Of a stretch of 57,325 nucleotides of DNA, positions 13,833-36,344 are shown piece by piece. A program made the position numbers and the translations under genes. Below the pieces are notes generated by a model, which worked only from the letters and a program-made list of their open reading frames with translations, made no database searches and was not told the origin of the DNA. Location: the IMG/VR virus record IMGVR_UViG_3300031867_000069, one strand, 5' to 3'. The stretch comes from a virus. Each line of letters opens with the position of its first letter. The stretch's first letter is position 1.

Positions 13833-13861
13833 TTCGCTAAAAAAACATGCCTCTTTATGAA
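13833..13861 (+). promoter_or_regulatory. Conserved promoter-like motif TTCGCT-N17-TATGAA
   Basis: Member of the 18-copy family. Intergenic, upstream of the SD and ATG 13880. Confidence 0.55.
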
Positions 13862-13879
13862 AAGAGAGGAGTGACATTT

Positions 13880-14020
13880 ATGTTTAATAAAATAAGATAT
13901 GCCTATCATTTAACAGCTTGTAAGAAAATTATGAAAAAATATAAGTATACTTATGAGCTGAATAAACGATTTATTTGGCATAGGAGACGGTTGAACAAAT
14001 TGATGCTTAATCTGAAATAA
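13880..14020 (+). CDS. Small basic protein (46 aa), below the ORF-track cutoff
   Basis: SD GAGAGGAG precedes the ATG. Product MFNKIRYAYHLTACKKIMKKYKYTYELNKRFIWHRRRLNKLMLNLK. Bounded by the motif upstream and a terminator downstream. Confidence 0.5.
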   Translation: MFNKIRYAYHLTACKKIMKKYKYTYELNKRFIWHRRRLNKLMLNLK

Positions 14021-14027
14021 AAAGATC

Positions 14028-14060
14028 GAGCTCTTTAACAAGGGCTCTTTCTTTTTTTTT
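14028..14060 (+). terminator. Cassette terminator (GAGCTCTT-TAAC-AAGGGCTC + T-run)
   Basis: 8-bp stem with one G-U pair, then T-run tttcttttttttt. Confidence 0.75.
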
Positions 14061-14129
14061 GTCGCATATTTTACAACTTATATGCTTCACAAGGAGAGGG
14101 AACACATACTGCACGCTCTTTTCTTTTTG

Positions 14130-14158
14130 TTCGCGTATTTTACAACTTATATTATGAA
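14130..14158 (+). promoter_or_regulatory. Promoter-like motif TTCGCG-N17-TATGAA
   Basis: ttcgcgtattttacaacttatattatgaa. Intergenic, upstream of gene 14198. Confidence 0.6.
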
Positions 14159-14197
14159 AAGAATCATTTTTTCAATATTTTAAAGGAGGTTTCTATT

Positions 14198-14395
14198 ATG
14201 AAAAAATACTTTAAAGATTATAAGGCTTTATGCAAACATTGCGGAAAATTTTATAAAGATCATTGGTTCGGAAGCTTAATGTTTACAACCATTGGTTTTG
14301 GATTATTAATCGCGCCGATTGCTATTAAGTCCATTAAAGATCACAAAGAATTTGAAAAAAAGAATCTTATAGTAAATGACGAAAAAGATGATTAA
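14198..14395 (+). CDS. Small membrane protein (65 aa)
   Basis: SD AAAGGAGG. Transmembrane (TM) segment WFGSLMFTTIGFGLLIAPIAI. Confidence 0.65.
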   Translation: MKKYFKDYKALCKHCGKFYKDHWFGSLMFTTIGFGLLIAPIAIKSIKDHKEFEKKNLIVNDEKDD

Positions 14396-14406
14396 TTCAA
14401 AAGATC

Positions 14407-14435
14407 GAGCTCTTTAACAAGGGCTCTTTCTTTTT
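14407..14435 (+). terminator. Cassette terminator (same sequence as 14028)
   Basis: gagctctt taac aagggctc tttcttttt. Confidence 0.75.
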
Positions 14436-14464
14436 GTCGCGTAAATTACAACTTATATTATGAA
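14436..14464 (+). promoter_or_regulatory. Promoter-like motif GTCGCG-N17-TATGAA
   Basis: gtcgcgtaaattacaacttatattatgaa, directly abutting the terminator. Confidence 0.6.
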
Positions 14465-14504
14465 AAGAATCATTTTTAAATAACTTTTAATGGAGGTATC
14501 TATA

Positions 14505-14729
14505 ATGAGTGAATTATTTTATAACTTTTGTAACTGGATTACTAAAATGATTACCGATATTCATAACACCAAAGACATGAATTTGTACGACCTTATTTAC
14601 TATTGTAATGTAGAAAATCAGGTCGAACATACAACAACTTTGGTACTATTGGTAATATTAGGAATCGTTGCTATTACAATAACATTCATCATGGTACATA
14701 AACTAATTGATGATTTTTCAAAAGATTGA
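14505..14729 (+). CDS. Small membrane protein (74 aa)
   Basis: SD TGGAGG lies before ATG 14505 (track ATG 14490 is inside the SD). TM segment LVLLVILGIVAITITFIMV. Confidence 0.6.
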   Translation: MSELFYNFCNWITKMITDIHNTKDMNLYDLIYYCNVENQVEHTTTLVLLVILGIVAITITFIMVHKLIDDFSKD

Positions 14730-14755
14730 GGCCTTAAACAAGGTCTCTTTCTTTT
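14728..14755 (+). terminator. Cassette terminator (GAGGCCTT-AAAC-AAGGTCTC)
   Basis: 8-bp stem with compensatory changes relative to 14028, then a T-run. It overlaps the stop codon. Confidence 0.75.
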
Positions 14756-14762
14756 GCTTTTG

Positions 14763-14791
14763 TACGCTTTAAAAACATATAATATTATGAA
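14763..14791 (+). promoter_or_regulatory. Promoter-like motif TACGCT-N17-TATGAA
   Basis: The TATGAA abuts SD AGGAGG. Confidence 0.5.
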
Positions 14792-15104: not shown

Positions 15105-15133
15105 GAGGCCTTAAACAAGGTCTCTTTCTTTTT
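15105..15133 (+). terminator. Cassette terminator (GAGGCCTT-AAAC-AAGGTCTC)
   Basis: Same hairpin as 14728, then a T-run. Confidence 0.75.
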
Positions 15134-15160
15134 CGTTTATTTTACACGGTATATTATGAA
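15132..15160 (+). promoter_or_regulatory. Promoter-like motif TTCGTT-N17-TATGAA
   Basis: ttcgtttattttacacggtatattatgaa, abutting SD AGGAG. Confidence 0.5.
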
Positions 15161-15354: not shown

Positions 15355-15383
15355 GAGCTCTTTGACAAGGGCTCTTTCTTTTT
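15355..15383 (+). terminator. Cassette terminator (GAGCTCTT-TGAC-AAGGGCTC)
   Basis: Near-identical to 14028 and 14407. Confidence 0.75.
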
Positions 15384-15412
15384 GTCGCGTAAATTACAAC
15401 TTATATTATGAA
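15384..15412 (+). promoter_or_regulatory. Promoter-like motif GTCGCG-N17-TATGAA
   Basis: Identical to the 14436 copy. Confidence 0.6.
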
Positions 15413-15456
15413 GACTTTTGTTCTTAATACATAAAAAATAAAGGAGGATGAGATCA

Positions 15457-15724: not shown

Positions 15725-15752
15725 GAGACCTTAAACAAGGTCTCTTTCTTTT
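15725..15752 (+). terminator. Cassette terminator (GAGACCTT-AAAC-AAGGTCTC)
   Basis: Perfect 8-bp stem, then a T-run. Confidence 0.8.
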
Positions 15753-15779
15753 CGCTAAAATAACATGTTCCTTTATGGA
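15751..15779 (+). promoter_or_regulatory. Promoter-like motif TTCGCT-N17-TATGGA
   Basis: ttcgctaaaataacatgttcctttatgga (AACATGTTCC spacer subtype). Confidence 0.55.
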
Positions 15780-15985: not shown

Positions 15986-16166
15986 AATAGGCGCAATTAT
16001 AGGCACTATAATTACTACCATATTACATTTTTCACATAAAACATTTGGAGAATTGGATATCAATCACAATGGCGACGTTTGTCGATTAAAGTTAAATTCC
16101 AAAGAAATTTCGAAAAAGAATAAAAAGAAAGTTGCGCTTAAAATTATTCATATTTCGCATGAATAA
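15960..16166 (+). pseudogene. 5'-truncated remnant of a small membrane-protein gene
   Basis: The open frame (...LIGAIIGTIITTILHFSHKTFGELDINHNGDVCRLKLNSKEISKKNKKKVALKIIHISHE*) has no ATG and no SD. Its 5' end is overwritten by the terminator. Confidence 0.4.
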
Positions 16167-16182
16167 CATTTGCTATTATGGA
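16154..16182 (+). promoter_or_regulatory. Promoter-like motif TTCGCA-N17-TATGGA
   Basis: ttcgcatgaataacatttgctattatgga. It overlaps the 3' end of the remnant ORF. Confidence 0.5.
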
Positions 16183-16220: not shown

Positions 16221-16613
16221 ATGAGTATAAAGACACTATTAAACGCTGAAATTGAATCCGAGTTCAAAGAACTTGAAAAAACTCAGGTGGGCTCAGATGA
16301 GTACAAAGTATCTATCGATGGTATTAGTAAACTGATCGACAGATCTATCGAAATGTCAAAGCTCGAAGCTGATATTAAGGACAAAGAAGAGACTCGTGAA
16401 TTAGAGACTCAACTTGAACTTAAGAAACAGAAGGACGAGCATCGAAATAAAATGATAGCTAATGTCTTAACTGGTACTAGTATCATTTCTGGTATAGCTT
16501 TGACTGTTTGGGGCACTCTAAAGAGTTTGAAGTTTGAAGAAACCGGAACCATAACGACTTCGGCAGGTAGGAGTTTTATTAATGGGATTGTAAAATCTTT
16601 TACAAAACATTAA
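16221..16613 (+). CDS. Coiled-coil protein with C-terminal TM segment (130 aa)
   Basis: SD AAAGGAGG lies before ATG 16221. TM segment MIANVLTGTSIISGIALTVWGTL. Confidence 0.65.
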   Translation: MSIKTLLNAEIESEFKELEKTQVGSDEYKVSIDGISKLIDRSIEMSKLEADIKDKEETRELETQLELKKQKDEHRNKMIANVLTGTSIISGIALTVWGTLKSLKFEETGTITTSAGRSFINGIVKSFTKH

Positions 16614-16827: not shown

Positions 16828-16856
16828 TTCGCGCATTTTACAACTTGTATTATGAA
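16828..16856 (+). promoter_or_regulatory. Promoter-like motif TTCGCG-N17-TATGAA
   Basis: It starts immediately after the TAA stop. 34 nt (16825-16858) are identical to 18023-18056. Confidence 0.6.
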
Positions 16857-16964: not shown

Positions 16965-16990
16965 AGGGGACCAAACCGGTCCTCTTACTT
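16965..16990 (+). terminator. Rho-independent terminator
   Basis: Stem aggggacc / ggtcctct, then a T-rich tail. Confidence 0.65.
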
Positions 16991-17019
16991 TTCGCGAATA
17001 TTGCATAGCATATTATGAA
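16991..17019 (+). promoter_or_regulatory. Promoter-like motif TTCGCG-N17-TATGAA
   Basis: ttcgcgaatattgcatagcatattatgaa, abutting SD AGGAGG. Confidence 0.6.
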
Positions 17020-17225: not shown

Positions 17226-17251
17226 GCTCATTATGAAAGGAGAAATTAAAA

Positions 17252-18025
17252 ATGAGTAAAATGAATTTATCAAGCATTGTTAAAAGCATGCGCCGTACAT
17301 TAAAAAAACACAGCCCTGAAATCCTTACTGGCATAGGTATTGCCGGTATGATTACGACCACAATATTGGCTGTTAAAGAAACGCCAAAAGCTGTTCGTTT
17401 GCTTGATGAAAGAAAAAACGAACTCGAAACTGAAAAATTGCCAGCGGTAGAAATCGTAAAAACTAGCTGGAAATGTTATATTCCAGCAGCTGTTACTTGT
17501 ACGCTATCTGCTGCTTGTTTGATTGGTGCGAGCTCCGTTAACTTAAAACGAAATGCTGCGCTAGCAACTGCTTATCAGCTTTCCGAAAAGGCTCTAACTA
17601 CTTATAAAGAAAAAGTAGTAGAAACTATCGGAGAGAAAAAAGAGCAAGTTATCAAAGATAAAGTGGCAGAGGAACATATGAAAGAAAATCCTAAGAGCCA
17701 TAACGAAGTTATTGTTACTGGCAATGGCGATGTGCTTTGCTACGATGCTTTCTCTGGACGATATTTTACATCTAGTAAAGCTAAAATTGATGATGCTGTT
17801 AATGCCATTAATAAAACAATGCTGGACGACTGGTGCGTAAGTCTGAATGACTTTTACGACGAGTTGAATCTGGATCATACTAAACTTGGCGATAGTATGG
17901 GATGGAATACTGATGGCGATTTGGTTAAAGTCTATTTTTCCAGCCAATTGACAGATGAAGGAAAGCCATGCTTGGTACTGGATTTCGATGTGGCGCCAAA
18001 CTATAACTATTACAGAATGAACTAA
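17252..18025 (+). CDS. Membrane-anchored protein, paralog of 19505..20446 (257 aa)
   Basis: The N-terminus LKKHSPEILTGIGIAGMITTTILAVKETPKA is shared with 19505 (LKKHSPEILVISGVVGTVAAGVMACKATTKA). SD AAAGGAG. Confidence 0.7.
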   Translation: MSKMNLSSIVKSMRRTLKKHSPEILTGIGIAGMITTTILAVKETPKAVRLLDERKNELETEKLPAVEIVKTSWKCYIPAAVTCTLSAACLIGASSVNLKRNAALATAYQLSEKALTTYKEKVVETIGEKKEQVIKDKVAEEHMKENPKSHNEVIVTGNGDVLCYDAFSGRYFTSSKAKIDDAVNAINKTMLDDWCVSLNDFYDELNLDHTKLGDSMGWNTDGDLVKVYFSSQLTDEGKPCLVLDFDVAPNYNYYRMN

Positions 18026-18054
18026 TTCGCGCATTTTACAACTTGTATTATGAA
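18026..18054 (+). promoter_or_regulatory. Promoter-like motif TTCGCG-N17-TATGAA
   Basis: Identical to the 16828 copy. The track ORF start 18050 is the ATG inside the motif. Confidence 0.6.
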
Positions 18055-18097
18055 GAACATTAATTGTTCGAAAATTATATTTACTGGAGGTACAAAA

Positions 18098-18352
18098 ATG
18101 GAAGAAGAAAAAATTGTTGAGATTGTAGACGAGGAAGAAACAGTGAAAACTGAAAATGATTCTAAGGCTTTGGTCACTAAGGCTAAAGACAAGTTTGTCA
18201 AGTACGGAAAGAAAGCTGGCGTTATCGCAGCTGGAATCGGTATTGGCGTTCTTGGATTTATTCTTGGATCAAAAACTAAAGATAATTCGGATGACTGTTA
18301 TGTCGAAACTACAGTCGCAGATGATTCTACCGAACACGATTCAGAAGAATAA
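18098..18352 (+). CDS. Small acidic membrane protein (84 aa)
   Basis: SD TGGAGG lies before ATG 18098. TM segment AGVIAAGIGIGVLGFILGS. Confidence 0.6.
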   Translation: MEEEKIVEIVDEEETVKTENDSKALVTKAKDKFVKYGKKAGVIAAGIGIGVLGFILGSKTKDNSDDCYVETTVADDSTEHDSEE

Positions 18353-18372
18353 TCGAAACAAATGTTCAAGGA

Positions 18373-18412
18373 GGGGGAATACCTGTAACAAGGTATTCTC
18401 TCTTTTGTTTTT
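18373..18412 (+). terminator. Rho-independent terminator ending the cassette array
   Basis: 12-bp stem (gggggaatacct / aggtattctctc, 2 G-U pairs), then ttttgttttt. Confidence 0.75.
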
Positions 18413-18426
18413 GACAGGAGATGAAA

Positions 18427-18627
18427 ATGGATAATCATGTGTATCATTATGAAGGACCTGTAATGCGTTATGGAACTTGCCTTTCTTCTAGGTGGTCGGC
18501 AAATACTATTGCTCCATCTAAAGCAAAAGCTAGGTCTAATTTTATGTATCAATATAAATCCTTAATTAATCTGTCTCCGACTGCAAAAATATATTTGCCT
18601 GGTGAGGTTGTATTAGTTAAAGATTAG
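18427..18627 (+). CDS. Hypothetical protein (66 aa)
   Basis: SD AGGAG lies 6 nt before ATG 18427 (track ATG 18421 abuts the SD). Confidence 0.55.
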   Translation: MDNHVYHYEGPVMRYGTCLSSRWSANTIAPSKAKARSNFMYQYKSLINLSPTAKIYLPGEVVLVKD

Positions 18628-18639
18628 GAGTGACAAAAA

Positions 18640-19236
18640 ATGGCAGAATACAAACCAAATTCTCACAAGTATAGAGAAGAACAGAATGCCGAAAGACAGA
18701 AAATACAAAAAGCTGTCAAAGGCAAAGTTAAAGTAAAAAAGAAAAAAGGAATTAATAAGTTAGCTGATAACTTTATTTCCGAAGATGTTAAGAATGTAAA
18801 GTCTTATGTCATCATGGACGTACTTATTCCATCACTTAAGAAAGCTATATCTGATATCGTTACGAACGGTATCGATATGATTCTTTACGGTGAAACAAGA
18901 GGTAAAAAGAAGACGGCTACCAATTATGTTTCCTACGATCGTTTTGCGGATAATCGAAGAGACGATAGAAGCAGAACAACATCAAGAGTAAGATATTCTA
19001 TCGATGATATCATCTTTGAAACTAAACGAGATGTTGATGATGTCATTCAAGGAATGGAACAAATCATTGATCAGTACGGTGTAGTAAGAGTTGCTGATCT
19101 TTACGATTTGGTTGGCATTACTGGCGATTATACCGACAACAAATACGGTTGGGATGATATTCGTACAGCAGATGCAGTAAGAACTAGGGACGGCGATTAT
19201 GCTCTTAGAATGCCTAAAGCCAAGCCTATTAAATAA
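18640..19236 (+). CDS. Hypothetical protein with basic N-terminus (198 aa)
   Basis: SD AGGAGTG. Long ORF with coherent composition. Confidence 0.65.
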   Translation: MAEYKPNSHKYREEQNAERQKIQKAVKGKVKVKKKKGINKLADNFISEDVKNVKSYVIMDVLIPSLKKAISDIVTNGIDMILYGETRGKKKTATNYVSYDRFADNRRDDRSRTTSRVRYSIDDIIFETKRDVDDVIQGMEQIIDQYGVVRVADLYDLVGITGDYTDNKYGWDDIRTADAVRTRDGDYALRMPKAKPIK

Positions 19237-19247
19237 AGGAGAGCAAT

Positions 19248-19508
19248 ATGAAGATTGAAAAGCAGGATATGGTTAACCATCCTAGCCATTATATTTCCAA
19301 GACAGGTCTCGAAACTATCGATGTTATCGAGGCTTTTACTGATGCCCTTAAGGGTATTGAAGCTACAGACACAGGCAATATCATTAAGTATATTTGCCGT
19401 TGGAAAGGTAAGAATGGAGTCGAGGATTTAAAGAAAGCTCAATGGTACTTGAACCATCTTATCGAACATGTTGAAAAAACTACTAAAAAGGAGAATAAAT
19501 TATCATGA
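19248..19508 (+). CDS. DUF3310-like phage protein (86 aa)
   Basis: The pattern VNHPSHY...ETIDVIEAF...GNIIKYICRWKGKNG.EDLKKAQWYLNHLI matches the DUF3310 signature as I recall it. Confidence 0.6.
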   Translation: MKIEKQDMVNHPSHYISKTGLETIDVIEAFTDALKGIEATDTGNIIKYICRWKGKNGVEDLKKAQWYLNHLIEHVEKTTKKENKLS

Positions 19509-20446
19509 AAAAATTAAAAATCACAAAAAATGTAACTAGAGCTTTTGGTAAAGCTAAACTACAGCTAAAAAAGCATAGTCCAGAAATCTTGGTTATTTCT
19601 GGTGTTGTTGGCACAGTTGCAGCAGGTGTAATGGCTTGTAAAGCAACTACTAAGGCTTCTGATATTTTGGAAGAAATGCATGAATCTATGGATCAGATTC
19701 ATAAAGTAAATGAAATGGCGGAAGAAAATGAAAACATTTCTTATGATGAAAACGATCTTAAGAAAGACACAACTATGGTTTATGTTCAGACAGGCGTTAA
19801 GTTTGCTAAACTTTATGGTCCTTCTTTAGCCGTTGGTATTCTATCAATCACTAGCATTCTTGTTGGTCATAACATCCTTCGCAAGAGAAATCTAGCGTTA
19901 GCAGCTGCTTACACAACCGTTTCTAATAGCTTTAAAGCTTATAGAGATCGTGTTGTGGATCGTTTCGGTAAAGATCTAGATCGTGAATTACGTTATGATG
20001 TTAAAGCAAAAGAAGTAGAAGAAACTGTTGTTGATGAAAACGGCAATGAAACTACTGTTAAGAATACTGTGAATGTTATTGATCCTAACCAAGTAAGCGA
20101 CTTCGCTCGAATCTTTGACGATGGTAACATTGGATGGGAAAAAGATTCCGAACACAATCTGGCATTCCTTAAGATGCAACAGAATTACGCGAATGATATT
20201 CTACAAACCAGAGGATATCTGTTCCTGAATGAAGTTTATGACATGCTTGGCTTTAACAGAACTAAAGCTGGTCAAGTAGTTGGCTGGTATTATGACGAGA
20301 AAAATCCAACTGGTGATAACTTCGTTGACTTTGGTATTTATCGTGGTGAATCTCCAGCAGTTAGAGCATTTGTTAACGGTGACGAACGTAGCATCTTGCT
20401 AGACTTTAATGTTGATGGTGAAATTCTTAACAGAGTATATGAATAA
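19505..20446 (+). CDS. Membrane-anchored protein, paralog of 17252..18025 (313 aa)
   Basis: Shares the N-terminal TM module and the RNLALAAAYT / RNAALATAYQ segment with 17252. ATGA overlap with the upstream gene. Confidence 0.7.
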   Translation: MKKLKITKNVTRAFGKAKLQLKKHSPEILVISGVVGTVAAGVMACKATTKASDILEEMHESMDQIHKVNEMAEENENISYDENDLKKDTTMVYVQTGVKFAKLYGPSLAVGILSITSILVGHNILRKRNLALAAAYTTVSNSFKAYRDRVVDRFGKDLDRELRYDVKAKEVEETVVDENGNETTVKNTVNVIDPNQVSDFARIFDDGNIGWEKDSEHNLAFLKMQQNYANDILQTRGYLFLNEVYDMLGFNRTKAGQVVGWYYDEKNPTGDNFVDFGIYRGESPAVRAFVNGDERSILLDFNVDGEILNRVYE

Positions 20447-20462
20447 TTGAGGAGATGATTCT

Positions 20463-20732
20463 ATGACTGGTAGAGATCTTGTCATTTATATTTTAGAGAA
20501 CCATCTAGAAGATAAACCGGTTATTTCAGAAACAGGTGAATTAATCGGTTTCTTAACCATTACCCAGGCCGCAAAGGAATTGAATGTAGGAACTGAAAGC
20601 ATAAAAACTTTGTTCCTATTAGGAGGCTTAGAAGGTATTAAAATCGGAGATACTATATTGCTATATCCTAAAAGTGTATATGATCGTAAAGAATTTAATA
20701 ATGCCAAACGAAATGAATTATTTGGATGCTAA
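20463..20732 (+). CDS. Small HTH DNA-binding protein (89 aa)
   Basis: The helix-turn-helix pattern LTITQAAKELNVGTESIKTLFLLGGLEGIKIG is excisionase/MerR-like. Confidence 0.5.
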   Translation: MTGRDLVIYILENHLEDKPVISETGELIGFLTITQAAKELNVGTESIKTLFLLGGLEGIKIGDTILLYPKSVYDRKEFNNAKRNELFGC

Positions 20733-20856
20733 AAGAAAACGTCATGTTGTCGGCGGTGTGCTAATTAGCGTATCATTTCTATTCGGAGGACTTGCATTAA
20801 CCGTATTTACCATTAAAGAAGATGAAAGGAGTTCTTATGAACAAAGTACTAACTAA
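20701..20856 (+). CDS. Small membrane protein (51 aa)
   Basis: ATG 20701. TM segment VVGGVLISVSFLFGGLALTVF. It overlaps the upstream gene by 32 nt. Confidence 0.4.
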   Translation: MPNEMNYLDAKRKRHVVGGVLISVSFLFGGLALTVFTIKEDERSSYEQSTN

Positions 20857-21322
20857 CCTATTTATATTTTTAGCAGGTGCAGCAGTAGGTTCAGGTATAA
20901 CCTACTATTTGCTTAATAGAGAAGACCAGTATGAGATTATATCTGGAGAAGAAACTGACGAATCTGAATCAGACGACGAAGACTCATCTAATGAAGAATA
21001 CTCTGATATAATCATCGATAATGGTTACACAACAGATACAAAGAAAGAGGTGGATGATAAAATGGAAAGCAGACCTTATGTTATTCCTCCTGACGAATTC
21101 GATATGATGGACTATGACACATCAAGTTTGACTTATTATGCAGACGGTGTTCTTACCGACGAATGCAACAATAAGATCGACGATATCGATGAGATTGTAG
21201 GTTTAGAATCACTAAAACATTTCGGAGAGTACGAAGATGATAGTGTATTCGTAAGGAATGACAAACTTAAAATTGATTACGAAATCTTATTAGATGTTCG
21301 TAAATATGAGGATACATTATGA
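20837..21322 (+). CDS. N-terminally anchored, highly acidic protein (161 aa)
   Basis: SD GAAAGGAG lies before ATG 20837. TM segment LFIFLAGAAVGSGITYYLL, then EETDESESDDEDSSNEEYSD. Confidence 0.6.
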   Translation: MNKVLTNLFIFLAGAAVGSGITYYLLNREDQYEIISGEETDESESDDEDSSNEEYSDIIIDNGYTTDTKKEVDDKMESRPYVIPPDEFDMMDYDTSSLTYYADGVLTDECNNKIDDIDEIVGLESLKHFGEYEDDSVFVRNDKLKIDYEILLDVRKYEDTL

Positions 21323-21873
21323 TTCTTGATAGCAATTTCGCTGATTGGATTGCTAACGATTACTTTGAATGGATTTGTAGTAAAGTATGTGAAAATAGAT
21401 TTCATGAAGAAGTATCTTTTAGAAAACTTCTAATGTGCTTACATGATATTGAATTCACATATATTATTAAAAATGATGTAAATCGTGAAGAAGATGGTTT
21501 AAATCTACGTTATAGATACTGTCTTCTTCATGACCACATGGATGATTTGCATTATTTAAATGGTCCATGTAGTGTGCTAGAAATAATGGTTGCTTTGGCA
21601 ATAAGATGCGAAGAAGATTTCATGTCTGACACCCGTTTAGGTAATCGTACCGCACAATGGTTTTGGAACATGATAGTTAGTTTGGGACTTGGATCTCAAA
21701 TTGATTATAATTTCGACAGAGAGTATGTTGAAAAAACTATCGACAGATTTCTTAATAGAAAGTACGAACGAAATGGAAAAGGCGGTTTGTTCACTGTTAG
21801 GAATTGTAAATATGACTTACGTAAAGTTGAAATATGGTGTCAAATGAACTGGTACCTAGACAACTTTGATTGA
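21319..21873 (+). CDS. Hypothetical protein (184 aa)
   Basis: ATGA overlap with the upstream gene. It sits immediately upstream of the replicase. Confidence 0.6.
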   Translation: MILDSNFADWIANDYFEWICSKVCENRFHEEVSFRKLLMCLHDIEFTYIIKNDVNREEDGLNLRYRYCLLHDHMDDLHYLNGPCSVLEIMVALAIRCEEDFMSDTRLGNRTAQWFWNMIVSLGLGSQIDYNFDREYVEKTIDRFLNRKYERNGKGGLFTVRNCKYDLRKVEIWCQMNWYLDNFD

Positions 21874-21891
21874 AAGGGGAACGTAAGATGA

Positions 21892-25842: not shown

Positions 25843-25870
25843 AAATTATATTTAAAGGAGATTAAAAATT

Positions 25871-26350: not shown

Positions 26351-26379
26351 TTCGCGATATTTACATCGTGTATTATGAA
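26351..26379 (+). promoter_or_regulatory. Promoter-like motif TTCGCG-N17-TATGAA
   Basis: ttcgcgatatttacatcgtgtattatgaa, abutting SD AGGAGG. Confidence 0.6.
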
Positions 26380-27121: not shown

Positions 27122-27341
27122 TTCTTCTACTTGTATATGGCCGGAGGGATTCAATTGTAAAGATTGCCCTAACCGGTCTATAGAACCAAATTGTCATACG
27201 ACCTGTGAAGGATATTTGGCTATGAAAGAGAATCAGGAAACTCACAGCAAAAAAAGGCGAAAAGAGTCTTCATACACAGATTACTATTACGAAGCCAAAC
27301 AACGTATGAGAAAACACAAAAACAAAAAATATTGGAAATGA
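27114..27341 (+). CDS. Cys-rich small protein with basic tail (75 aa)
   Basis: ATG 27114 overlaps the upstream stop. It contains C..C.....C...C in STCIWPEGFNCKDCPNRSIEPNCHTTCEGY. Confidence 0.5.
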   Translation: MYNSSTCIWPEGFNCKDCPNRSIEPNCHTTCEGYLAMKENQETHSKKRRKESSYTDYYYEAKQRMRKHKNKKYWK

Positions 27342-27353
27342 GGTTTATATTTT

Positions 27354-27551
27354 ATGAGCAAGCAATTAGTTTTAGCATGTGATTATTGCATACATAAAAG
27401 CGTATGCGGGAAAAAACATCTTTTTGAAGGTGCACAGAAAGATCTTGAACAATTTAATGTTCTAAAGATTATTAATGATAAAGATTGGATTACAGTCCAA
27501 CCTTTAAAATGTTCATATTATTTAGGTTACAGTGATATCAGTGATGAGTAA
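27354..27551 (+). CDS. Cys-containing small protein (65 aa)
   Basis: ATG 27354 lies after GAGG. Contains CDYCIHKSVCG. Confidence 0.5.
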   Translation: MSKQLVLACDYCIHKSVCGKKHLFEGAQKDLEQFNVLKIINDKDWITVQPLKCSYYLGYSDISDE

Positions 27552-28774: not shown

Positions 28775-28803
28775 TTCGCGTAAAACACATGTTCCTTTAT
28801 GGA
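28775..28803 (+). promoter_or_regulatory. Promoter-like motif TTCGCG-N17-TATGGA
   Basis: ttcgcgtaaaacacatgttcctttatgga. Confidence 0.6.
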
Positions 28804-29713: not shown

Positions 29714-29742
29714 TTCGCGAGAATAACATGTTCCTTTATGAA
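29714..29742 (+). promoter_or_regulatory. Promoter-like motif TTCGCG-N17-TATGAA
   Basis: ttcgcgagaataacatgttcctttatgaa. Confidence 0.6.
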
Positions 29743-30003: not shown

Positions 30004-30041
30004 AAGGTGTCTGAAACATGGCACCTTATTCTTTTATTTTT
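30004..30041 (+). terminator. Rho-independent terminator
   Basis: 8-bp stem (aaggtgtc / ggcacctt), then attcttttattttt. Confidence 0.65.
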
Positions 30042-30056
30042 GAAAGGAGAATTTAC

Positions 30057-30932
30057 ATGAGCAAAAAATATGAATTCACGGGAGAAACTAAAACGATGCA
30101 GGATGGCAATATTTTGCATAGAATCATAGCTTGTAAAACATTCGGAAATGTAAAATCCGGAGAACTCGGCGGATGGATCGAAAACGAAAATAATTTGAGT
30201 CATGAAGGAAATGCTTGGGTTTCTGAAAATGCTAGTGTTTATGGAAATGCTAAGGTTTCTGGAAATGCTGAGATTTCTGGAGATGCTAGAGTTTATGGTG
30301 ATGCTGAGATTTTTGGAGATGCTGAGATTTCTGGAGATTCTTGGGTTTCTGGAAATGCTAAGGTTTCTGGAAATGCTGAGATTTCTGGTGATTCTTGGGT
30401 TTTTGGAAATGCTGAGATTTCTGGAAATGCTGAGATTTCTGGAAATGCTAGTGTTTATGGAGATTCTGGGGTTTATGGTGATGCTAAGATTTCTGGAGAT
30501 GCTAAGATTTCTGGAGATGCTGAGATTTCTGGTGATTCTTGGGTTTATGGTGATGCTAGGGTTTATGGTTATTCTTGGGTTTATGGAAATGCTAGGGTTT
30601 ATGGTGATGCTAGGGTTTCTGGAAATGCTATAGTTTATGGAGATGCTAGAGTTTTTGGAAACGCTTGGGTTTTTGGAAATGCTGAGATTTCTGGAAATGC
30701 TGAGATTTCTGGAGATGCTGATTATGCAACAATCAAAGGATTTGGAACTAACTTTAGAAATACTACTTTCTTTAAGTGTTCCGACGGATCTATAAAGGTC
30801 AATTGCGGTTGTTTCTATGGAACTTTAAAAGAGTTTAGAAAACAGGTAAATAAAACTAGATCTGGAAAAATCAGAAAAGAATATCTTATGATTGCAGATC
30901 TAATGGAAATGCATTTTTCAAATAAAACTTAG
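30057..30932 (+). CDS. Hexapeptide-repeat (left-handed beta-helix type) protein of unknown function (291 aa)
   Basis: SD AAAGGAGAA lies before ATG 30057. There are 28 consecutive G-[ND]-[AS]-x-[VI]-x hexads. The C-terminal domain contains a GCFYGTLKEF motif. Confidence 0.75.
   Translation: MSKKYEFTGETKTMQDGNILHRIIACKTFGNVKSGELGGWIENENNLSHEGNAWVSENASVYGNAKVSGNAEISGDARVYGDAEIFGDAEISGDSWVSGNAKVSGNAEISGDSWVFGNAEISGNAEISGNASVYGDSGVYGDAKISGDAKISGDAEISGDSWVYGDARVYGYSWVYGNARVYGDARVSGNAIVYGDARVFGNAWVFGNAEISGNAEISGDADYATIKGFGTNFRNTTFFKCSDGSIKVNCGCFYGTLKEFRKQVNKTRSGKIRKEYLMIADLMEMHFSNKT
30207..30719 (+). repeat. 18-bp tandem repeat array (about 28.5 units, consensus ggaaatgctgagatttct)
   Basis: Read directly from the sequence. 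It encodes the hexapeptide repeats. Confidence 0.9.
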
Positions 30933-31650: not shown

Positions 31651-31839
31651 ATGATATTTAGAAGAAACAAACTTACAGTTGACGAAATTGAAGCATATGT
31701 ACAAAATCATTTAGATCTATATAATAGCCAAATAAAAATATTAGAAGATGATAATTATACATGTGAATGTTTAAAAGCACAAAGAGTAACTTGTAAAGAG
31801 ATACTTAGATTCATTAAAGTTAGAAAGGCTCAGCAATAA
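31651..31839 (+). CDS. Intron-nested small protein (62 aa)
   Basis: SD AAAGGAGG. The stop lies inside the terminator stem. Confidence 0.55.
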   Translation: MIFRRNKLTVDEIEAYVQNHLDLYNSQIKILEDDNYTCECLKAQRVTCKEILRFIKVRKAQQ

Positions 31840-31859
31840 CGCTGGGTCTTTTCTCTTTT
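31827..31859 (+). terminator. Rho-independent terminator (copy 1 of a 35-nt exact repeat)
   Basis: Stem ggctcagc / gctgggtc, then ttttctctttt. 31826-31860 is identical to 32428-32462. Confidence 0.7.
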
Positions 31860-32191: not shown

Positions 32192-32220
32192 TTCGCGAAA
32201 TACGCACTTCCTTTTATGAA
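32192..32220 (+). promoter_or_regulatory. Promoter-like motif TTCGCG-N17-TATGAA (inside the intron)
   Basis: ttcgcgaaatacgcacttccttttatgaa, abutting SD AGGAG. Confidence 0.55.
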
Positions 32221-32428: not shown

Positions 32429-32461
32429 GGCTCAGCAATAACGCTGGGTCTTTTCTCTTTT
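32429..32461 (+). terminator. Rho-independent terminator (copy 2 of the 35-nt repeat)
   Basis: Identical to 31827-31859. Confidence 0.7.
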
Positions 32462-32528
32462 ATATTTAAAGCGTGGCTAACGGGGAACCACCCATTGGAA
32501 TCCCGTGGGAAACATTTCAAAAATATAA

Positions 32529-32557
32529 TACGCGAAAAATACATAGCGTATTATGAG
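32529..32557 (+). promoter_or_regulatory. Promoter-like motif TACGCG-N17-TATGAG with no ORF downstream
   Basis: It lies between the P4-P6 and P7 halves of the intron core. No SD or credible ORF follows in the next ~300 nt. Confidence 0.4.
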
Positions 32558-32834: not shown

Positions 32835-33421
32835 AAAAAATTATGGTGGACTTATATTTATAATAACGAACATGATTCGTATATCTATAAAGGTCCTTAT
32901 AGTATTGATTTGATGTATCAAAAACGTGATAAATTCGATGGGAATATTTATGAGCATAATTTAAGAACAAAGAAAGATATAAAGGCTGCTAGTGAAGATA
33001 CCTTAATAGAGGAGTTTGATACCTTTTATAAGAAAAACAAAAATGATATAGATAATCTTTTACGTCCTGGTTTTGATAATTTAATGAATACTCCGTATGC
33101 TAAATTAACAAAGGACGGCGTTACATATAAAGATGTGGCTGGAAATTCAAGAAATCTGCAAAACAATATAAGTATGCGGAAAAATTTGTAAATAGATTAA
33201 AGGAACAGAAATATTCCGCTATCGAAGATATGAATAATAAAGGTTCGTATTATAATTCTATAAGTCCTGTTGTCATTCTTGATGGCAAACAATATTTATC
33301 AGAAACCGGAATATCTTCTTTACCAGCAAGTCATGTTTATGCATACGGTAATTACGTTATGAATGTATTAGGTTACAAAAACGAGCAAGCCGGTTATCGT
33401 AATATCATAAAACAATTTTAA
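32835..33421 (+). pseudogene. Frame-disrupted intronic ORF (possible decayed homing-endonuclease gene)
   Basis: Two overlapping frames (32835/32913..33191 and 33131..33421) sit between the P7 5' and 3' strands. There is no SD. I see no LAGLIDADG, GIY-YIG or HNH motif. Confidence 0.3.
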
Positions 33422-33461
33422 ATAAACACACAAAACAATAGTAAAAGATAGTCCATTAATG

Positions 33462-33886
33462 GGAAAGAATTTGATACTTATAAGGTTGGTACTGTTGCAA
33501 ACTCATGCTCAACGATGCACAAGATTCATGAGAAGGAGTTTATGATGGAGGATTTTAGTTGTGAAAAGCTTATAAACTCAGCATGCATGGAAATTCAAGA
33601 ACAGCATATTCGTATAAGCCCGATACAAGCATTGGCAACGACCATTGAGTGCTTGAATTCCTATCGGGATTTATATTTGCAAACCAAAGATAAAAAATAT
33701 TGGTGGCAGATGATCCAGCTTCTTCCAAGCTCATATAACCAGAAGAGAACTGTAATGCTGAATTACGAGGTTCTTGCTGGCATTTATATTTCTAGGAAGG
33801 ACCATAAGCTCGACGAATGGAAGGAGTTCTGTAAGTGGATAGAAAGCCTTCCATATTCTGAGTTAATTACTGGAAAGGAGAACTAA
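33462..33886 (+). CDS. ThyX-like protein, exon 2
   Basis: The frame is open from 33452. (W)KEFDTYKVGTVANSCSTMH... continues the ThyX alignment, and ...LLPSSYNQKRTVMLNYEVLAGIYISRKDHKLDEW corresponds to ThyX [34 protein letters not shown]. Confidence 0.7.
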
Positions 33887-33887
33887 T

Positions 33888-34664
33888 ATGGCTATTGAAG
33901 AAAAATACAGAAAAATAAGGAGAAAGGATCGACATCTAATGAATAATGTAAATAACGCTGAACTCTATGATATCATCCCTTTTAAAGAGGACAAGAGCTG
34001 GTATCTTAAATTAATTTACAAATATGAAGACGAGTACGGTAAACATTCGGTTGTGATACCAAAAGCCGCAATACCCTTTGTTCAAAGAAAACTTCCGACT
34101 ATTATGAGATTAACATCCCATCCGCATATCGATTTTTTAGAGCGCCCTTATATTGAATGTAATAGTTCAATGCCATTATACAAAAACCAATGTAACCTCG
34201 CACTTGAGCGAGGCATTAAGAGATCCGACTGTTATTTTGATATTATAACAGATTTCACTCCAATGCAGAGCAAAATTAGGAATGTGTATTTCAACGACCC
34301 TTTAACTGTTGTAATTTGGACAGATGGCACTAAGACATTTGTCAAAAATGCTGACGGTGACCATAACTATGATCCTGAGAAGGCTCTTGCCATGGCTATT
34401 TCTAAGAAAGCTCTTGGAAATAAGTATAGATATTACCAAGAGTTTGAAAAATGGCTTCCTGAAGAGAAAGCGAAGACTTCTAGAAAAAGCTTCTCATCCT
34501 TTAAAATGGCATCTAAAGAATGCGTAGATGGACAACTAGCTTTAACAGAAAATCCTGTAGAAAAAGCATATTTAATGCTTCTAAAAATGAAAGATGATCC
34601 ATCAAGCACAGATATTGATGCCATAATCGAATATTTAGGAGAAATGCTATATCTGGATATTTAG
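33888..34664 (+). CDS. Hypothetical phage protein (258 aa)
   Basis: ATG lies 1 nt after the upstream stop. It carries the conserved phage segment VYFNDPLTVVIWTDGTKTFVKNADGDHNYDPEKALAMAISKKALGNK. Confidence 0.65.
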   Translation: MAIEEKYRKIRRKDRHLMNNVNNAELYDIIPFKEDKSWYLKLIYKYEDEYGKHSVVIPKAAIPFVQRKLPTIMRLTSHPHIDFLERPYIECNSSMPLYKNQCNLALERGIKRSDCYFDIITDFTPMQSKIRNVYFNDPLTVVIWTDGTKTFVKNADGDHNYDPEKALAMAISKKALGNKYRYYQEFEKWLPEEKAKTSRKSFSSFKMASKECVDGQLALTENPVEKAYLMLLKMKDDPSSTDIDAIIEYLGEMLYLDI

Positions 34665-34696
34665 GAGAGGCGTTAGATAGCTAAGGAGGAACTATA

Positions 34697-34894
34697 ATGC
34701 ATGATGCATCAATGTTTATAGTATTTTTGCTAATATTGGCATTAATACTTATATTGGTAGCCGGGGCTTTCGTGTTTATACACGAGGCTCTGGAAGACCG
34801 AAGAAAAAGAAAAATAAAGAAAGAACAACGTATGATTCGTAGGGAATGCTACGAATATTGGAAGGAGAAGTATTCAAATGACAAACAAGAATGA
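34697..34894 (+). CDS. Small membrane protein (65 aa)
   Basis: SD AAGGAGG. TM segment FIVFLLILALILILVAGAFVFI, then a basic tail. Confidence 0.6.
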   Translation: MHDASMFIVFLLILALILILVAGAFVFIHEALEDRRKRKIKKEQRMIRRECYEYWKEKYSNDKQE

Positions 34895-35321
34895 AACACT
34901 AAGAGAAAAAGCAAAAGCATGTAACAGCAACATTCAAGATCTTATCAACAAGTTAACCGATATTCAAAAGGATATCAGTGAGTATGTGAATAAGAGTAAT
35001 GCAATCGATGCTTTAGAGGAATTAAATATGCCTATTAATCCGATGATAGCTTTTCAATTAATTCAAATTCAAGTTAAGATGTTATGCGACAGTACAGCAT
35101 TGGGAGAACATTTGGACACAGTAGTAAACAGTCTGCAAACTGTCGCTAATGCCTTTAACAAAGACATGTTTGGCGACAACAATAAGCATACAAATCTTAA
35201 TGATATTCCTAAAGATGCTGTTCAATTGAAAGGAAAAATCGGAACTGTTGATAGCTTCCTCACTGATATTGAAGCTATAATGAAAATGATGGAAGATGAA
35301 GAAGGTGAGAACAATGAATAA
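34878..35321 (+). CDS. Hypothetical protein (147 aa)
   Basis: SD GGAAGGAG. Confidence 0.6.
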   Translation: MTNKNETLREKAKACNSNIQDLINKLTDIQKDISEYVNKSNAIDALEELNMPINPMIAFQLIQIQVKMLCDSTALGEHLDTVVNSLQTVANAFNKDMFGDNNKHTNLNDIPKDAVQLKGKIGTVDSFLTDIEAIMKMMEDEEGENNE

Positions 35322-35511
35322 TTCGGATAAATTCAACGGTTCGGGCTGTGTTGATTTAACGGCATATGAAGCCATTAAAAACATTGAAGACGAAGAAGTT
35401 CGCTTTAAAAAGCTCTTACATACTATTAAATATATTTGCGATATTGCAGACTTCGAAATCTGTGGTCGCATTGTACTTAGAGACAGAAAGTCTGAAAGGA
35501 CTTGGAGGTAA
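35314..35511 (+). CDS. Hypothetical protein (65 aa)
   Basis: ATG 35314 overlaps the upstream stop. Confidence 0.5.
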   Translation: MNNSDKFNGSGCVDLTAYEAIKNIEDEEVRFKKLLHTIKYICDIADFEICGRIVLRDRKSERTWR

Positions 35512-35518
35512 CATATTT

Positions 35519-35866
35519 ATGGTTGTAAAAAAGATGGGCAATAAGATATTTGGAGCTGAGTTAACTCGTAATGAGCAAAAGGCTTTAGATATTGAGATTA
35601 AGAAACAATTGGCCGAATATGACCGTAAGAATATGATGGAGATGGACTCTATTATATTGTGGATCCTTCATTCCATGTATGGACTCGGCGAGAAAAGGCT
35701 TAGAGCATTTTATGATAATTTCCATACAGAGCTTGAAGCTTTAGCTGATCGTTATGAAATGGATGATGAAGACGCATATTTATGTACCGAAAATCTAAGA
35801 CGAATTGGCATTGATGTTGAAAAATGGCATCAAGAAAAAGCCGAAAGATTATCAAAAGAGTTATAA
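35519..35866 (+). CDS. Hypothetical protein (115 aa)
   Basis: SD GGAGG lies before ATG 35519. The track start 35366 lacks an SD and overlaps the previous gene. Confidence 0.6.
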   Translation: MVVKKMGNKIFGAELTRNEQKALDIEIKKQLAEYDRKNMMEMDSIILWILHSMYGLGEKRLRAFYDNFHTELEALADRYEMDDEDAYLCTENLRRIGIDVEKWHQEKAERLSKEL

Positions 35867-35881
35867 TTTTTTGAAATAATT

Positions 35882-35916
35882 GGGCTAGTTTTAATAACTA
35901 GTCCTTTTATTTTTCC
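35882..35916 (+). terminator. Rho-independent terminator
   Basis: Stem gggctagtt / aactagtcc, then ttttattttt. Confidence 0.75.
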
Positions 35917-35941
35917 ATTTTTGAGGATGTTTTTAGTGTTT

Positions 35942-36129
35942 ATGCCCACTTTTGTGGCCAAAAGCCCACTTTATGCCCACTTTTGGCCAATAAAAATGGC
36001 CACAAGAATTGTCCAATTTGGGTCATTTTTGGTCGTTTTTGGGGTAAAAAAGGGCATTTTTGGGGTATTTTGTGGTGTTTTTTCACATTTTTTGAGAATT
36101 TTTAAGGTTTGTGGCCAAAAGCCCACTTT
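35942..36129. repeat. Short direct repeats (iteron-like): ATGCCCACTTTTG x2 and TTTGTGGCCAAAAGCCCACTTT x2, plus multiple TGGCCA
   Basis: The 13-mer is at 35942 and 35973. The 22-mer is at 35951 and 36108. TGGCCA occurs about 7 times between 35955 and 36249. Confidence 0.85.
36021..36110. repeat. Nine helically phased T4-6 tracts (10-nt period), predicted bent DNA
   Basis: ggtcattttt ggtcgttttt ggggtaaaaa agggcatttt tggggtattt tgtggtgttt tttcacattt tttgagaatt tttaaggttt. Confidence 0.8.
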
Positions 36130-36196
36130 TATTTTAATTTATTTAAGAAAAAAGTATATATATTTAAAAAGAATTGACAAAAAAAAACGGGTTTTT

Positions 36197-36302
36197 GGCC
36201 ACAGGCATATTTTAGGGTCGAATAAGGTTGAAAATGTGCATTTGGCCACAGGCATATTTTAGGGTCGAATAAGGTTGAAAATGTGCATTTGGCTATATTT
36301 TT
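36197..36302. repeat. Perfect 47-bp tandem repeat, 2 full units plus a partial third
   Basis: ggccacaggcatattttagggtcgaataaggttgaaaatgtgcattt occurs at 36197-36243 and 36244-36290, followed by ggctatattttt. Confidence 0.9.
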
Positions 36303-36315
36303 CAATTTTTTAAAA

Positions 36316-36344
36316 TTCGCGTGAAAAACATGCCCTTTTATGAA
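36316..36344 (+). promoter_or_regulatory. Promoter-like motif TTCGCG-N17-TATGAA heading the nuclease / RNA polymerase operon
   Basis: ttcgcgtgaaaaacatgcccttttatgaa. Confidence 0.6.

Follow-up and report, generated by a model that had tools for sequence, protein, structure and literature searches.

How minimal two-barrel RNA polymerases find promoters without a sigma factor or general transcription factors is an open question. The YonO enzyme of Bacillus prophage SPbeta, a phage-encoded single chain of ~100 kDa homologous to the catalytic core of multisubunit polymerases, transcribes one late operon of the phage genes, and the study describing it defined neither its promoter nor any factor requirement (Forrest et al. 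2017, PMC5467207). The crAss-like phage phi14:2 carries gp66, a QDE-1-like single-chain polymerase that serves early genes and for which packaging in the virion is the model of bootstrapping; no common motif lies upstream of its transcripts (10.1101/2020.03.07.982082). Late promoters of the phiKZ non-virion polymerase comprise four bases, T(-3)ATG(+1), and those of AR9 read A(-11)ACA-N6-T-R(+1), recognized by a multisubunit enzyme in the uracil-containing template strand (PMC7598289). Here, we analyze a viral stretch of 57,325 nucleotides, IMG/VR record IMGVR_UViG_3300031867_000069 (the window, by which the whole stretch is always meant), that encodes a predicted 944-amino-acid enzyme of this kind and carries, on one strand, many copies of a 29-bp motif of three conserved blocks. 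We propose, with a probability of about 60%, that this motif is a promoter read directly by the phage's own polymerase, a proposal that draws on sequence comparison.

The pairing of a two-barrel phage polymerase with its own motif has a precedent in P23-45 gp64/gp96, where a conserved motif precedes early genes only in those relatives that encode the enzyme, and where this co-occurrence was used as supporting evidence; the P23-45 promoters, GC-rich and AT-rich, differ in sequence and were mapped by Oxford Nanopore Technologies (ONT)-cappable-seq and by chromatin immunoprecipitation sequencing (ChIP-seq), one enzyme is a tape-measure fusion, and no mention is made of fused helix-turn-helix readers (10.1101/2022.12.01.518664). 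In layout, the motif also resembles promoters of the T7/SP6 type, which are likewise contiguous repeats of 20-30 bp on one strand with an upstream recognition part, a T/A-rich melting part and a purine start at the 3' edge; their polymerases, however, have a Pol I-like fold, in contrast to the two-barrel fold predicted here. The SP6 promoter reads CACTATAGAAG, and the version of our motif in Lactococcus phage 1706, ACTATAGTAGAAAG, looks similar, a sequence resemblance that is probably coincidental.

The protein family of the window enzyme was described by Koert et al. in an actinophage supercluster, in 1706 and in Faecalibacterium phage FP_oengus, with predicted RNA-dependent RNA polymerase (RdRP)-like motifs, a DxDGD loop and helix-turn-helix domains at both ends; the word 'promoter' is absent from that work, and the link between motif and polymerase, together with the spread to gut Clostridia phages and prophages, is added here (10.1101/842583). 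The motif, in turn, is the same element as the 32-bp intergenic repeat of Arthrobacter phage cluster AU, the Giantsbane sequence TTCGCGAAAATTACAAGGCCTATAATGA aligning position by position with that of the window. The Giantsbane preprint regards these repeats, within one cluster, as recombination boundary sequences and connects them neither with the polymerase nor with strand polarity or further hosts (10.1101/2020.01.10.891226). Beyond that repeat, our literature searches found no published description of this promoter; what is new is a candidate promoter specific to a phage polymerase, for an enzyme family in which promoter recognition is uncharacterized.

An exact pattern search of the window for TTCGCG-N17-TATGAA finds eight copies against 0.03 expected, all of them on the + strand. 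Allowing up to two mismatches recovers 17 + strand copies at the coordinates listed in the first-pass annotation of this DNA, and an eighteenth (31608, CACGCG...TACGAA) departs at three positions, stands in register and has a weight-matrix score of 32.4. The claim of 18 full copies therefore holds for sites in register, only eight of which are exact. Scored with a position weight matrix built from these sites, they reach 27-39, while the next best match on either strand, at 31170, reaches 15.4; the strand split is 18 to 0, and the spacing between the outer blocks is 17 nt without exception (18/18), as had been stated. The earlier description by two hexamers captured the outer blocks and overlooked a third. 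Our refined consensus is tTCGCg-W6-ACA-N7-TTATGAAa: a 5' block (C3 and G4 in 18/18, C5 in 17/18), an almost purely A/T stretch at motif positions 7-12, a middle block (A13 in 16/18, C14 and A15 in 18/18) and a 3' block, TTATGAAa (T23, T24, A25 and G27 in 18/18, T26 in 17/18, positions 28-30 A-rich). The blocks are conserved position by position, and spacers and flanks vary between copies, the spacers falling roughly into the two families already described. Also present, as annotated, are one degenerate copy (14060) and two truncated copies of the TTATGAAAGGAG kind (17231 and 31858).

The placement of the sites is equally regular. All but one lie entirely outside called open reading frames (ORFs), in a region that is 84% coding; the exception to the claim that every copy is intergenic, 32529, overlaps a doubtful 55-amino-acid ORF with a TTG start. 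A ribosome-binding site and start codon follow 18-85 nt downstream in 16/18 copies. The ribosome-binding site does abut TATGAA, as previously noted, in roughly a third of the window copies (6-7/18) and not in half. Directly upstream of many copies stands a hairpin/T-run terminator, and between 13 and 33 kb we count 33 terminator-like sites against 8.2 expected, nearly all on the + strand.

A megablast search with the 13-33 kb region against GenBank phages gave no match, and relatives were therefore sought via the polymerase protein. In FP_oengus (49% GC), the window matrix finds 14 sites, every one of them on the + strand; they occupy the region of small genes and the stretch before the nuclease-polymerase operon. 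Repeat searches followed by lineage-specific matrices found the element in the same genomic place in 1706 (as TCGCATGTTTTACATATACTATAGTAGAAAG; 12 + and 0 - strand sites), Streptomyces phage RavenPuff (61% GC; 7 and 0), Arthrobacter phage Giantsbane (12 and 0) and Gordonia phage Petito (12 and 0), the three actinophages each having a copy ahead of the VRR-Nuc/Cas4/polymerase genes. When 80 IMG/VR loci (1.16 Mb), chosen only because they encode the polymerase at 47-68% identity, were scanned with a common matrix, 120 matches fell on the + strand and none on the - strand; 21 loci in bacterial genomes, representing prophages or phage contigs, gave 33 and none. Where a locus extends far enough upstream, one copy almost always stands 0.9-1.3 kb ahead of the start of the polymerase gene. 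Aligned, 22 such operon-heading sites are conserved from motif position 1 over ~40 nt, and the sequence upstream is unrelated between lineages.

The distribution is also bounded. The structural modules of the window, FP_oengus, 1706 and RavenPuff are free of copies, and so is the sequence downstream of the polymerase in the IMG/VR loci, as far as it is present (up to 10 kb); a few bacterial-genome loci (L097, L101 and L106) do have downstream copies. FP_Mushu, which shares the host of FP_oengus and lacks the polymerase, gave no match, as a single negative control. Operons closely related to the polymerase operon, all accompanied by a copy of the motif, occur in contigs from cultured Clostridia, namely [Ruminococcus] torques ATCC 27756, Cuneatibacter caecimuris, Hungatella hathewayi, Enterocloster lavalensis and a Clostridium sp.; these loci (L092, L093, L094, L095 and L110) are probably prophages, and where a match falls in a bin assigned to Bacteroidaceae, Collinsella or Succinivibrionaceae, a binning error is the probable cause. 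Enrichment and restriction to the + strand are thus confirmed by matrix scans in the window and in related phages alike, and across phages of Clostridia, Lactococcus, Streptomyces, Arthrobacter and Gordonia the motif appears to be inherited with the polymerase and not with the host.

The polymerase itself is a prediction that several lines support. Its ORF at 37254-40088, which the first-pass annotation had taken for a YonO-like enzyme, matches phrog_4291 over the full length (1197 bits), is 47% identical to the FP_oengus protein and contains the catalytic loop SGADFDGDTV of the family. An AlphaFold model of moderate quality (mean predicted local distance difference test, pLDDT, 67.5) retrieves QDE-1 as the top Foldseek match in the PDB (E 3e-5, probability 1.0), followed by RDR2 and beta'/Rpb1 chains; the QDE-1 match spans 818-838 alignment columns at a template modelling (TM) score of 0.25-0.28, and we regard the fold evidence from this model as supportive, not strong. 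We therefore describe the protein as a predicted single-chain two-barrel RNA polymerase of YonO/QDE-1-like type, its relation to YonO resting on shared PHROG and RdRP-type annotation and on Koert et al. (10.1101/842583), not on direct alignment. Unlike YonO, the window family has conserved N- and C-terminal helix-turn-helix segments and a many-copy candidate promoter in the early and replication half of the genome. The family is large, with ~900 clusters at 50% identity (E<=1e-30), more than 8000 clusters at 90% identity, and ~250 phage records in GenBank, for the most part from sequenced phages of Arthrobacter, Gordonia and Streptomyces.

Two N-terminal and one C-terminal helix-turn-helix-like segments are conserved throughout 16 aligned family members, and Pfam signals of this kind fall at residues 103-127 and 915-941. 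The Sigma70_r4 match to the C-terminal segment (26.6 bits against a cut-off of 24.1) covers only 18 residues and stands beside a dozen other helix-turn-helix families. Because the isolated domain is modelled as a generic three-helix fold of LuxR, resolvase or IstA type, with LuxR-type, resolvase, IstA and DeoR matches at E>=0.095, we do not call it sigma region 4; sequence searches of the helix-turn-helix regions against the PDB gave nothing significant. A Pfam scan of ~29 window proteins, mostly longer than 90 amino acids and including few ORFs below ~90, returned no sigma-region-4 or helix-turn-helix match other than those in the polymerase. A separate phage sigma factor or activator was likewise sought in Pfam and PHROG scans of the non-structural proteins (mostly >90 amino acids), and none was found. 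Comparing by eye the block changes between lineages (TCGCG versus TCGCA) with changes in the recognition helices involved too few independent lineages for a conclusion.

The polymerase N-terminus (37287-37358) carries an invariant LxHYGMPRRSGRYPWGSG. Two proteins flanking the terminase gene (42366-43046 and 44839-45414) open with a DUF7211 peptide, ELYHHGIKGMKWGVRRYQ, which is also found in proteins of the head module in RavenPuff, FP_oengus and further relatives. The likeness between the polymerase peptide and DUF7211 is weak (hhalign probability 84% over 11 columns; hmmsearch E 0.6-0.9), and the shared peptide may be a capsid-targeting or ejection signal.

The position of ribosome-binding sites narrows down where transcription could begin. 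Among 97 sites of the window and related Firmicutes phages, the ribosome-binding-site core begins at motif positions 27-31 in 22 and never earlier (for example, TTATGGAGGTGATATTTATG), and the RNA must hence start at or before position 27, in keeping with the earlier suggestion of a start within TATGAA. Positions 25 and 27 are purines in every lineage consensus; by analogy with phiKZ and AR9, G27 would be the likeliest start, with A25 as an alternative. Those enzymes, too, are sigma-independent two-barrel polymerases that use short elements at or just upstream of the start, and the window motif has an invariant ACA and TATG. They are, however, multisubunit, with split beta and beta' chains, whereas the window enzyme is a single chain; ACA and TATG are 8 nt apart in the window against 6 in AR9, and the window has an extra TCGCG ~10 nt further upstream. 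We take the resemblance, and the assignment of G27 with it, as a lead and not as a test.

Two other ways of reading the 3' block were considered and set aside. A leaderless start at the ATG of TTATGAA would be in frame and open in only 3/18 copies, and the triplet is GTA in 1706, ACG in copy 31608 and ATA in some relatives. A DNA hairpin of the N4 type, or one in the RNA that would mask the ribosome-binding site, is backed by no covariation in the window and by marginal covariation in relatives: pairing around TTATG scores 4.33 in the window against 4.54 with shuffled partners, and 4.90 against 4.68 in relatives.

The genome layout bears on what the motif could control. The window is a complete circular assembly of ~57.3 kb, its last 29 nt (57297-57325) repeating the first 29. 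A 1760-codon open frame for the tape measure runs from 52045 over the window end and on to 1576; minus-strand ORFs at 52-57 kb, a candidate lysogeny module, lie inside this frame across the circular junction and were rejected as spurious, which leaves all genes on the + strand. From a GC-rich gap resembling a cohesive-end site (cos) at 40373-40657, the order is small late genes, terminase, portal, protease/capsid, tail and holin (13400-13690), then many small genes that each have a copy of the motif (13.8-18 kb), the genes for replication (primase/polymerase, annealing protein and helicase), more small genes, the exonuclease and the 944-amino-acid protein. Within the gap, a GC-rich non-coding element at 40394-40470 is 75-85% conserved in most relatives, in Firmicutes and Actinobacteria phages alike. 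We identify it as cos because at least eight IMG/VR contigs end at window position 40433 and because deposited actinophage genomes end in ...CATCGCCGCCCT, which corresponds to 40432-40443. This places the polymerase operon at the right end of the linear genome and the late genes at its left end.

Past cos, a stem at ~40486-40630, ahead of the first late gene at 40657, folds at -51.3 kcal/mol (z = -6.0) as + strand RNA and at -41.6 as - strand RNA, with compensatory changes at 23/27 pairs among 11 relatives. Its loop holds a conserved TTCTCCTTTC, resembling the anti-Shine-Dalgarno end of 16S rRNA. The stem has no Rfam match, and no known RNA family or tRNA was found; cleavage by RNase III, or regulation of the late operon as its leader, are possible roles. 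A + strand stem at this place fits RNA read-through across joined cos ends, without proving it. We also looked for a conserved late promoter in the interval from cos to the first late gene and rejected it: blastn finds only cos there, and the aligned regions show the structured-RNA stem and no shared linear motif. Just left of the cos cut, the loop of a hairpin at 40398-40425 (GGGGGGGTGTCGAAAATTACACCCCC) holds TCG-AAAATT-ACA, like the upstream half of the motif, and TCGC(A/G) occurs at the equivalent place near cos in RavenPuff, Giantsbane, Petito and 1706. The similarity may reflect a half-site for polymerase binding at the genome end, or coincidence. The right genome end, beside this hairpin, would be expected to enter the cell first if the phage behaves like lambda.

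From these elements, a transcription programme can be sketched. The polymerase would bind duplex DNA through its helix-turn-helix segments at TCGCG (positions 2-6) and ACA (13-15), with the A/T-only stretch between them, melt the T/A-rich TTAT at 23-26, and start RNA at a purine in TTATGAA; counted from a start at G27, TCGCG would span roughly -25 to -21 and ACA roughly -14 to -12. Each start would give an mRNA with its ribosome-binding site 0-60 nt from the 5' end. Most units would consist of one small gene and a closing hairpin/T-run terminator, and the run 18026-26350 would carry the replication genes. The unit at 36316 would carry the exonuclease and the polymerase itself, forming a positive-feedback loop. 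Since we found no convincing + strand terminator between 36316 and 49901, the structural and lysis half, which lacks motif copies, would probably be reached by read-through from 36316 over the re-joined cos. That the polymerase gene stands behind its own copy, as the first-pass annotation observed, is correct, and a source of the first enzyme is consequently needed; virion delivery or weak host transcription are possible. The bootstrapping problem accordingly stays.

Several observations weigh against a motif read by the phage enzyme. The polymerase lies behind its own motif and no conserved host-type promoter was found for its operon: a candidate, TTGGCT-16-TAAAAT adjoining site 36316, has nothing conserved at its place in 21 relatives. 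The 1706 polymerase, orf75, is not among the ORFs labelled structural in the GenBank record. Those labels are said to go back to the 2008 work of Garneau and colleagues, presumably to virion analysis. The units end in hairpin/T-run terminators, which are classical signals for the host polymerase, and the YonO study ties hairpin-dependent termination to the flap domain, a later addition to a minimal YonO-like core (PMC5467207). The same study has YonO transcribing late, not early, genes. In the actinophages, positions 21-26 read a perfect TATAAT, with the ribosome-binding site far enough away for a sigma-A start. Finally, the conserved tripartite motif of a crAss-like phage turned out to be a host sigma-70 promoter, a caution for any reading of the present kind, and the QDE-1-like virion polymerase of that phage had no detectable motif (10.1101/2020.03.07.982082).

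The leading competitor, which we judge unlikely, assigns the motif to host RNA polymerase, which would recognize it either as an extended sigma-A promoter of unusual form with its -10 box at 21-26 (TATAAT/TATTAT) or with a phage activator at TCGCG and ACA. On this view, late genes would be read from an unrecognized promoter near cos by the phage polymerase, the last product of the early/middle region, in the manner of YonO in SPbeta. Such a scheme needs no bootstrapping, agrees with the late role of YonO and with the tripartite host promoter of the crAss-like phage, and accounts for units closed by intrinsic terminators. The outer blocks are indeed 17 nt apart; about half of the window copies read TATTAT at 21-26, two of them giving TTGTCG-16-TATTAT with a 9/12 match; and the actinophage TATAAT is followed ~13-20 nt further on by the ribosome-binding site, a geometry that would permit a sigma-A start 6-8 nt past the -10 box.

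The details of the motif nevertheless fit sigma-A poorly. TTCGCG matches the -35 hexamer at 3/6 positions and TATGAA the -10 hexamer at 4/6, without its T6, and the best conserved positions (C3, G4 and C5, C14 and A15, G27) are ones that sigma-A does not contact and that, given a 17-nt spacer, lie within the spacer or discriminator region. With the -10 box at 21-26, many copies in Firmicutes phages have T in place of the essential A-11, the second position of the box (CTTTAT, TTTTAT). A box at 21-26 or 24-29 would put the start 6-8 nt beyond it, at 32-37, and so remove the ribosome-binding site at the 22 of 97 sites described above. Sigma-70-like hexamer pairs are not enriched (91 against 89.6 expected, and 72 against 73.9), and the view of the motif as promoter-like yet not of sigma-A type is upheld. 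Nor does a host factor explain the retention of these upstream blocks in phages that infect Clostridia, Lactococcus and three genera of actinobacteria. Helix-turn-helix segments were seen in only one conserved phage protein, the polymerase, and the stretch from cos to the first late gene has no blastn-level conservation except the structured-RNA stem. The first-pass annotation had offered two options, the phage enzyme or host polymerase with a specificity factor; the comparative evidence favours the phage enzyme, because the motif follows the polymerase gene across phages of Firmicutes and Actinobacteria and because, among the ~29 window proteins scanned against Pfam, the helix-turn-helix match is found in the polymerase only, and the question is not thereby settled.

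A motif that is no promoter at all, serving as the binding site of a phage regulator or as a recombination 'boundary sequence' between small early genes, as proposed for the cluster AU repeat, appears very improbable. In its favour, the Giantsbane repeat flanks a gene cassette that is rearranged between phages (10.1101/2020.01.10.891226), the small genes between repeats are highly variable among relatives, and helix-turn-helix proteins are usually regulators. Against it stand the absolute strand polarity (120:0, 33:0 and every site in six genomes examined in full or in part), the fixed place between terminator and ribosome-binding site, and the copy that heads the conserved, non-mosaic nuclease-polymerase operon in almost all relatives. 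Block-wise conservation with free spacers, kept across phyla, is what would be expected of a protein-read signal with fixed geometry. The roles of promoter and recombination linker are in any case compatible, as promoters can also serve as linkers. That the copies are a functionless residue of recent duplications of small-gene cassettes, as longer shared flanks of some neighbours might suggest (14407-14479 and 15355-15427 are 89% identical), is already contradicted by the comparative sequence data, since most copies share nothing beyond 30 nt, invariant and free positions alternate inside the motif, and the motif is kept where polymerases are only 44-68% identical and megablast finds no match.

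It is tempting to extend a promoter read by the phage polymerase to a fully self-sufficient system: a sigma-free enzyme, carried in the virion, whose three helix-turn-helix readers engage a tripartite duplex promoter and which would run the early and replication programme without host polymerase, the late genes being switched on only after read-through of re-joined cos. This fuller version we regard as distinctly unlikely. Leads in its direction are the DUF7211-like peptide, the TCG-AAAATT-ACA of the cos hairpin, the lack of a conserved host-type promoter, the lack of a strong terminator between 36316 and the late genes, and the covarying stem; none is conclusive.

The pairing of a sharp 29-bp three-block consensus with a single polypeptide bearing three helix-turn-helix segments gives the question of sigma-free promoter finding a concrete form, and because the large family includes cultured, easily handled members (1706, actinophages and prophage-like loci of Clostridia), it is directly testable. 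If the phage polymerase does read the motif, the two would constitute a compact orthogonal polymerase/promoter pair for Gram-positive hosts. The routine annotation of the polymerase gene as a 'helix-turn-helix DNA-binding protein' would need correction, the cluster AU 'boundary sequences' would be re-interpreted, and the persistence of one transcription programme across hosts of two phyla would be explained.

Table 1. Motif copies, associated features and lineage consensus sequences (window coordinates; RBS, ribosome-binding site; aa, amino acids)
Feature	Position	Strand	Remarks
Motif copy TTCGCT...TATGAA	13833..13861	+	Score 32.9; first after holin gene and terminator; followed by 46-aa ORF 13880
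Terminator family, hairpin and T-run	14028..14047 (first); also 14407, 14728, 15105, 15355, 15725, 16965, 32137	+	Directly upstream of motif copies; repeat families D5/D6
Degenerate copy	14060..14088	+	TCGC and ACA blocks kept; TTATGAA block lost
Motif copy, exact	14130..14158	+	Score 38.3; ahead of 65-aa ORF 14198
Motif copy	14436..14464	+	Terminator 14407-14426 directly upstream; ahead of ORF 14505
Motif copy	14763..14791	+	RBS adjoins TATGAA; ahead of ORF 14809
Motif copy	15132..15160	+	RBS adjoins TATGAA; ahead of ORF 15178
Motif copy	15384..15412	+	Ahead of ORF 15448
Motif copy, TATGGA variant	15751..15779	+	Ahead of ORF 15802
Motif copy	16154..16182	+	Ahead of ORF 16221-16613
Motif copy, exact	16828..16856	+	Followed by RBS, very short ORF and terminator 16965-16985
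Motif copy, exact	16991..17019	+	RBS adjoins; ahead of ORF 17034 and DUF6353 gene 17252
Truncated copy, TTATGAAAGGAG alone	17231..17242	+	Directly after terminator; upstream blocks absent
Motif copy, exact	18026..18054	+	Upstream of gene run 18098-26350, including primase/polymerase 21892-25842
Motif copy, exact	26351..26379	+	RBS adjoins; ahead of ORF 26393
Motif copy	28775..28803	+	Directly 3' of helicase gene; ahead of ORF 28846
Motif copy, exact	29714..29742	+	Ahead of ORF 29765
Motif copy, 3 mismatches, CACGCG...TACGAA	31608..31636	+	RBS adjoins; ahead of ORF 31651
Truncated copy TTATGAAAGGAA	31858..31869	+	Fused to T-run of terminator 31823-31852
Motif copy, exact	32192..32220	+	RBS adjoins; ahead of ORF 32235
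Motif copy TACGCG...TATGAG	32529..32557	+	Downstream gene uncertain
Motif copy, exact	36316..36344	+	Heads operon 36425 (98 aa) - exonuclease 36651 - polymerase 37254 - 40092
Cas4-like exonuclease	36651..37250	+	Ahead of polymerase in one operon; gene order identical in all relatives
Predicted single-chain two-barrel RNA polymerase, 944 aa, YonO/QDE-1-like	37254..40088	+	phrog_4291; Foldseek QDE-1
Two N-terminal helix-turn-helix-like segments (IAKSMGLSTTQFR, EIGRKMGIPESSVRSLL)	37443..37634	+	Pfam HTH_IclR aa 103-127; conserved in 16-member alignment; Koert et al., 10.1101/842583
Catalytic loop SGADFDGDTV, aa 528-537	38835..38864	+	SGADFDGD identical in 16/16 aligned family members (Firmicutes and Actinobacteria phages)
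C-terminal helix-turn-helix (YTLEQIANKLGISTSTVAKYL)	39996..40076	+	Pfam Sigma70_r4 26.6 bits, HTH_23, HTH_3; conserved
cos site	40394..40470		Physical genome ends ~40433/40443
Consensus, common register, Giantsbane			cTCGCaagaaTTaCA.ggccTATAATGAgA
Consensus, common register, Petito			cTCGCA..aAtTACAtgtCcTATAATGAGA
Consensus, common register, RavenPuff			.TCGCA.GtTtTtC.tGCttTATaaTGAGA
Consensus, common register, 1706			T.cacAtgTTTTACAta.aCTATAGTAGAa
Consensus, common register, window			TTCGCgtaaattACAt.tt.taTTATGAAa
Consensus, common register, FP_oengus			GaCGCGAAAAat.CAg..TcCTTTATGgaa

Of the sites in Table 1, the copy at 36316 is the one whose position, ahead of the polymerase operon, is kept in almost every relative examined. 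The terminator hairpins at 14028-14047, 14407-14426, 14728-14747, 15105-15124, 15355-15374 and 15725-15744 form a repeat family of their own, GAGnyCTTwAACAAGGnCTC followed by a T-run; its ACAAGG core recurs in terminators of Giantsbane, Petito and RavenPuff, and not in those of FP_oengus or 1706. A further terminator-like hairpin, at 18369-18406, lies inside the gene run 18098-26350. Transcription of the helicase block (26813-28770) and of the genes at 32910-35866 is not accounted for by motif copies, and the long intergenic stretches at 26620-26812 and 32455-32528, both after terminators, contain no recognizable copy.

Two features of the early/middle region are recorded here for completeness. 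The ORF at 30018-30932 contains ~37 tandem copies of an 18-nt unit (30144-30809) and encodes a repeat protein of beta-solenoid/bactofilin-like type (Pfam B_solenoid_ydck, Bactofilin). Upstream of the primase/polymerase gene, 17252-18025 and 19505-20446 encode two paralogous DUF6353 (phrog_2152) proteins.

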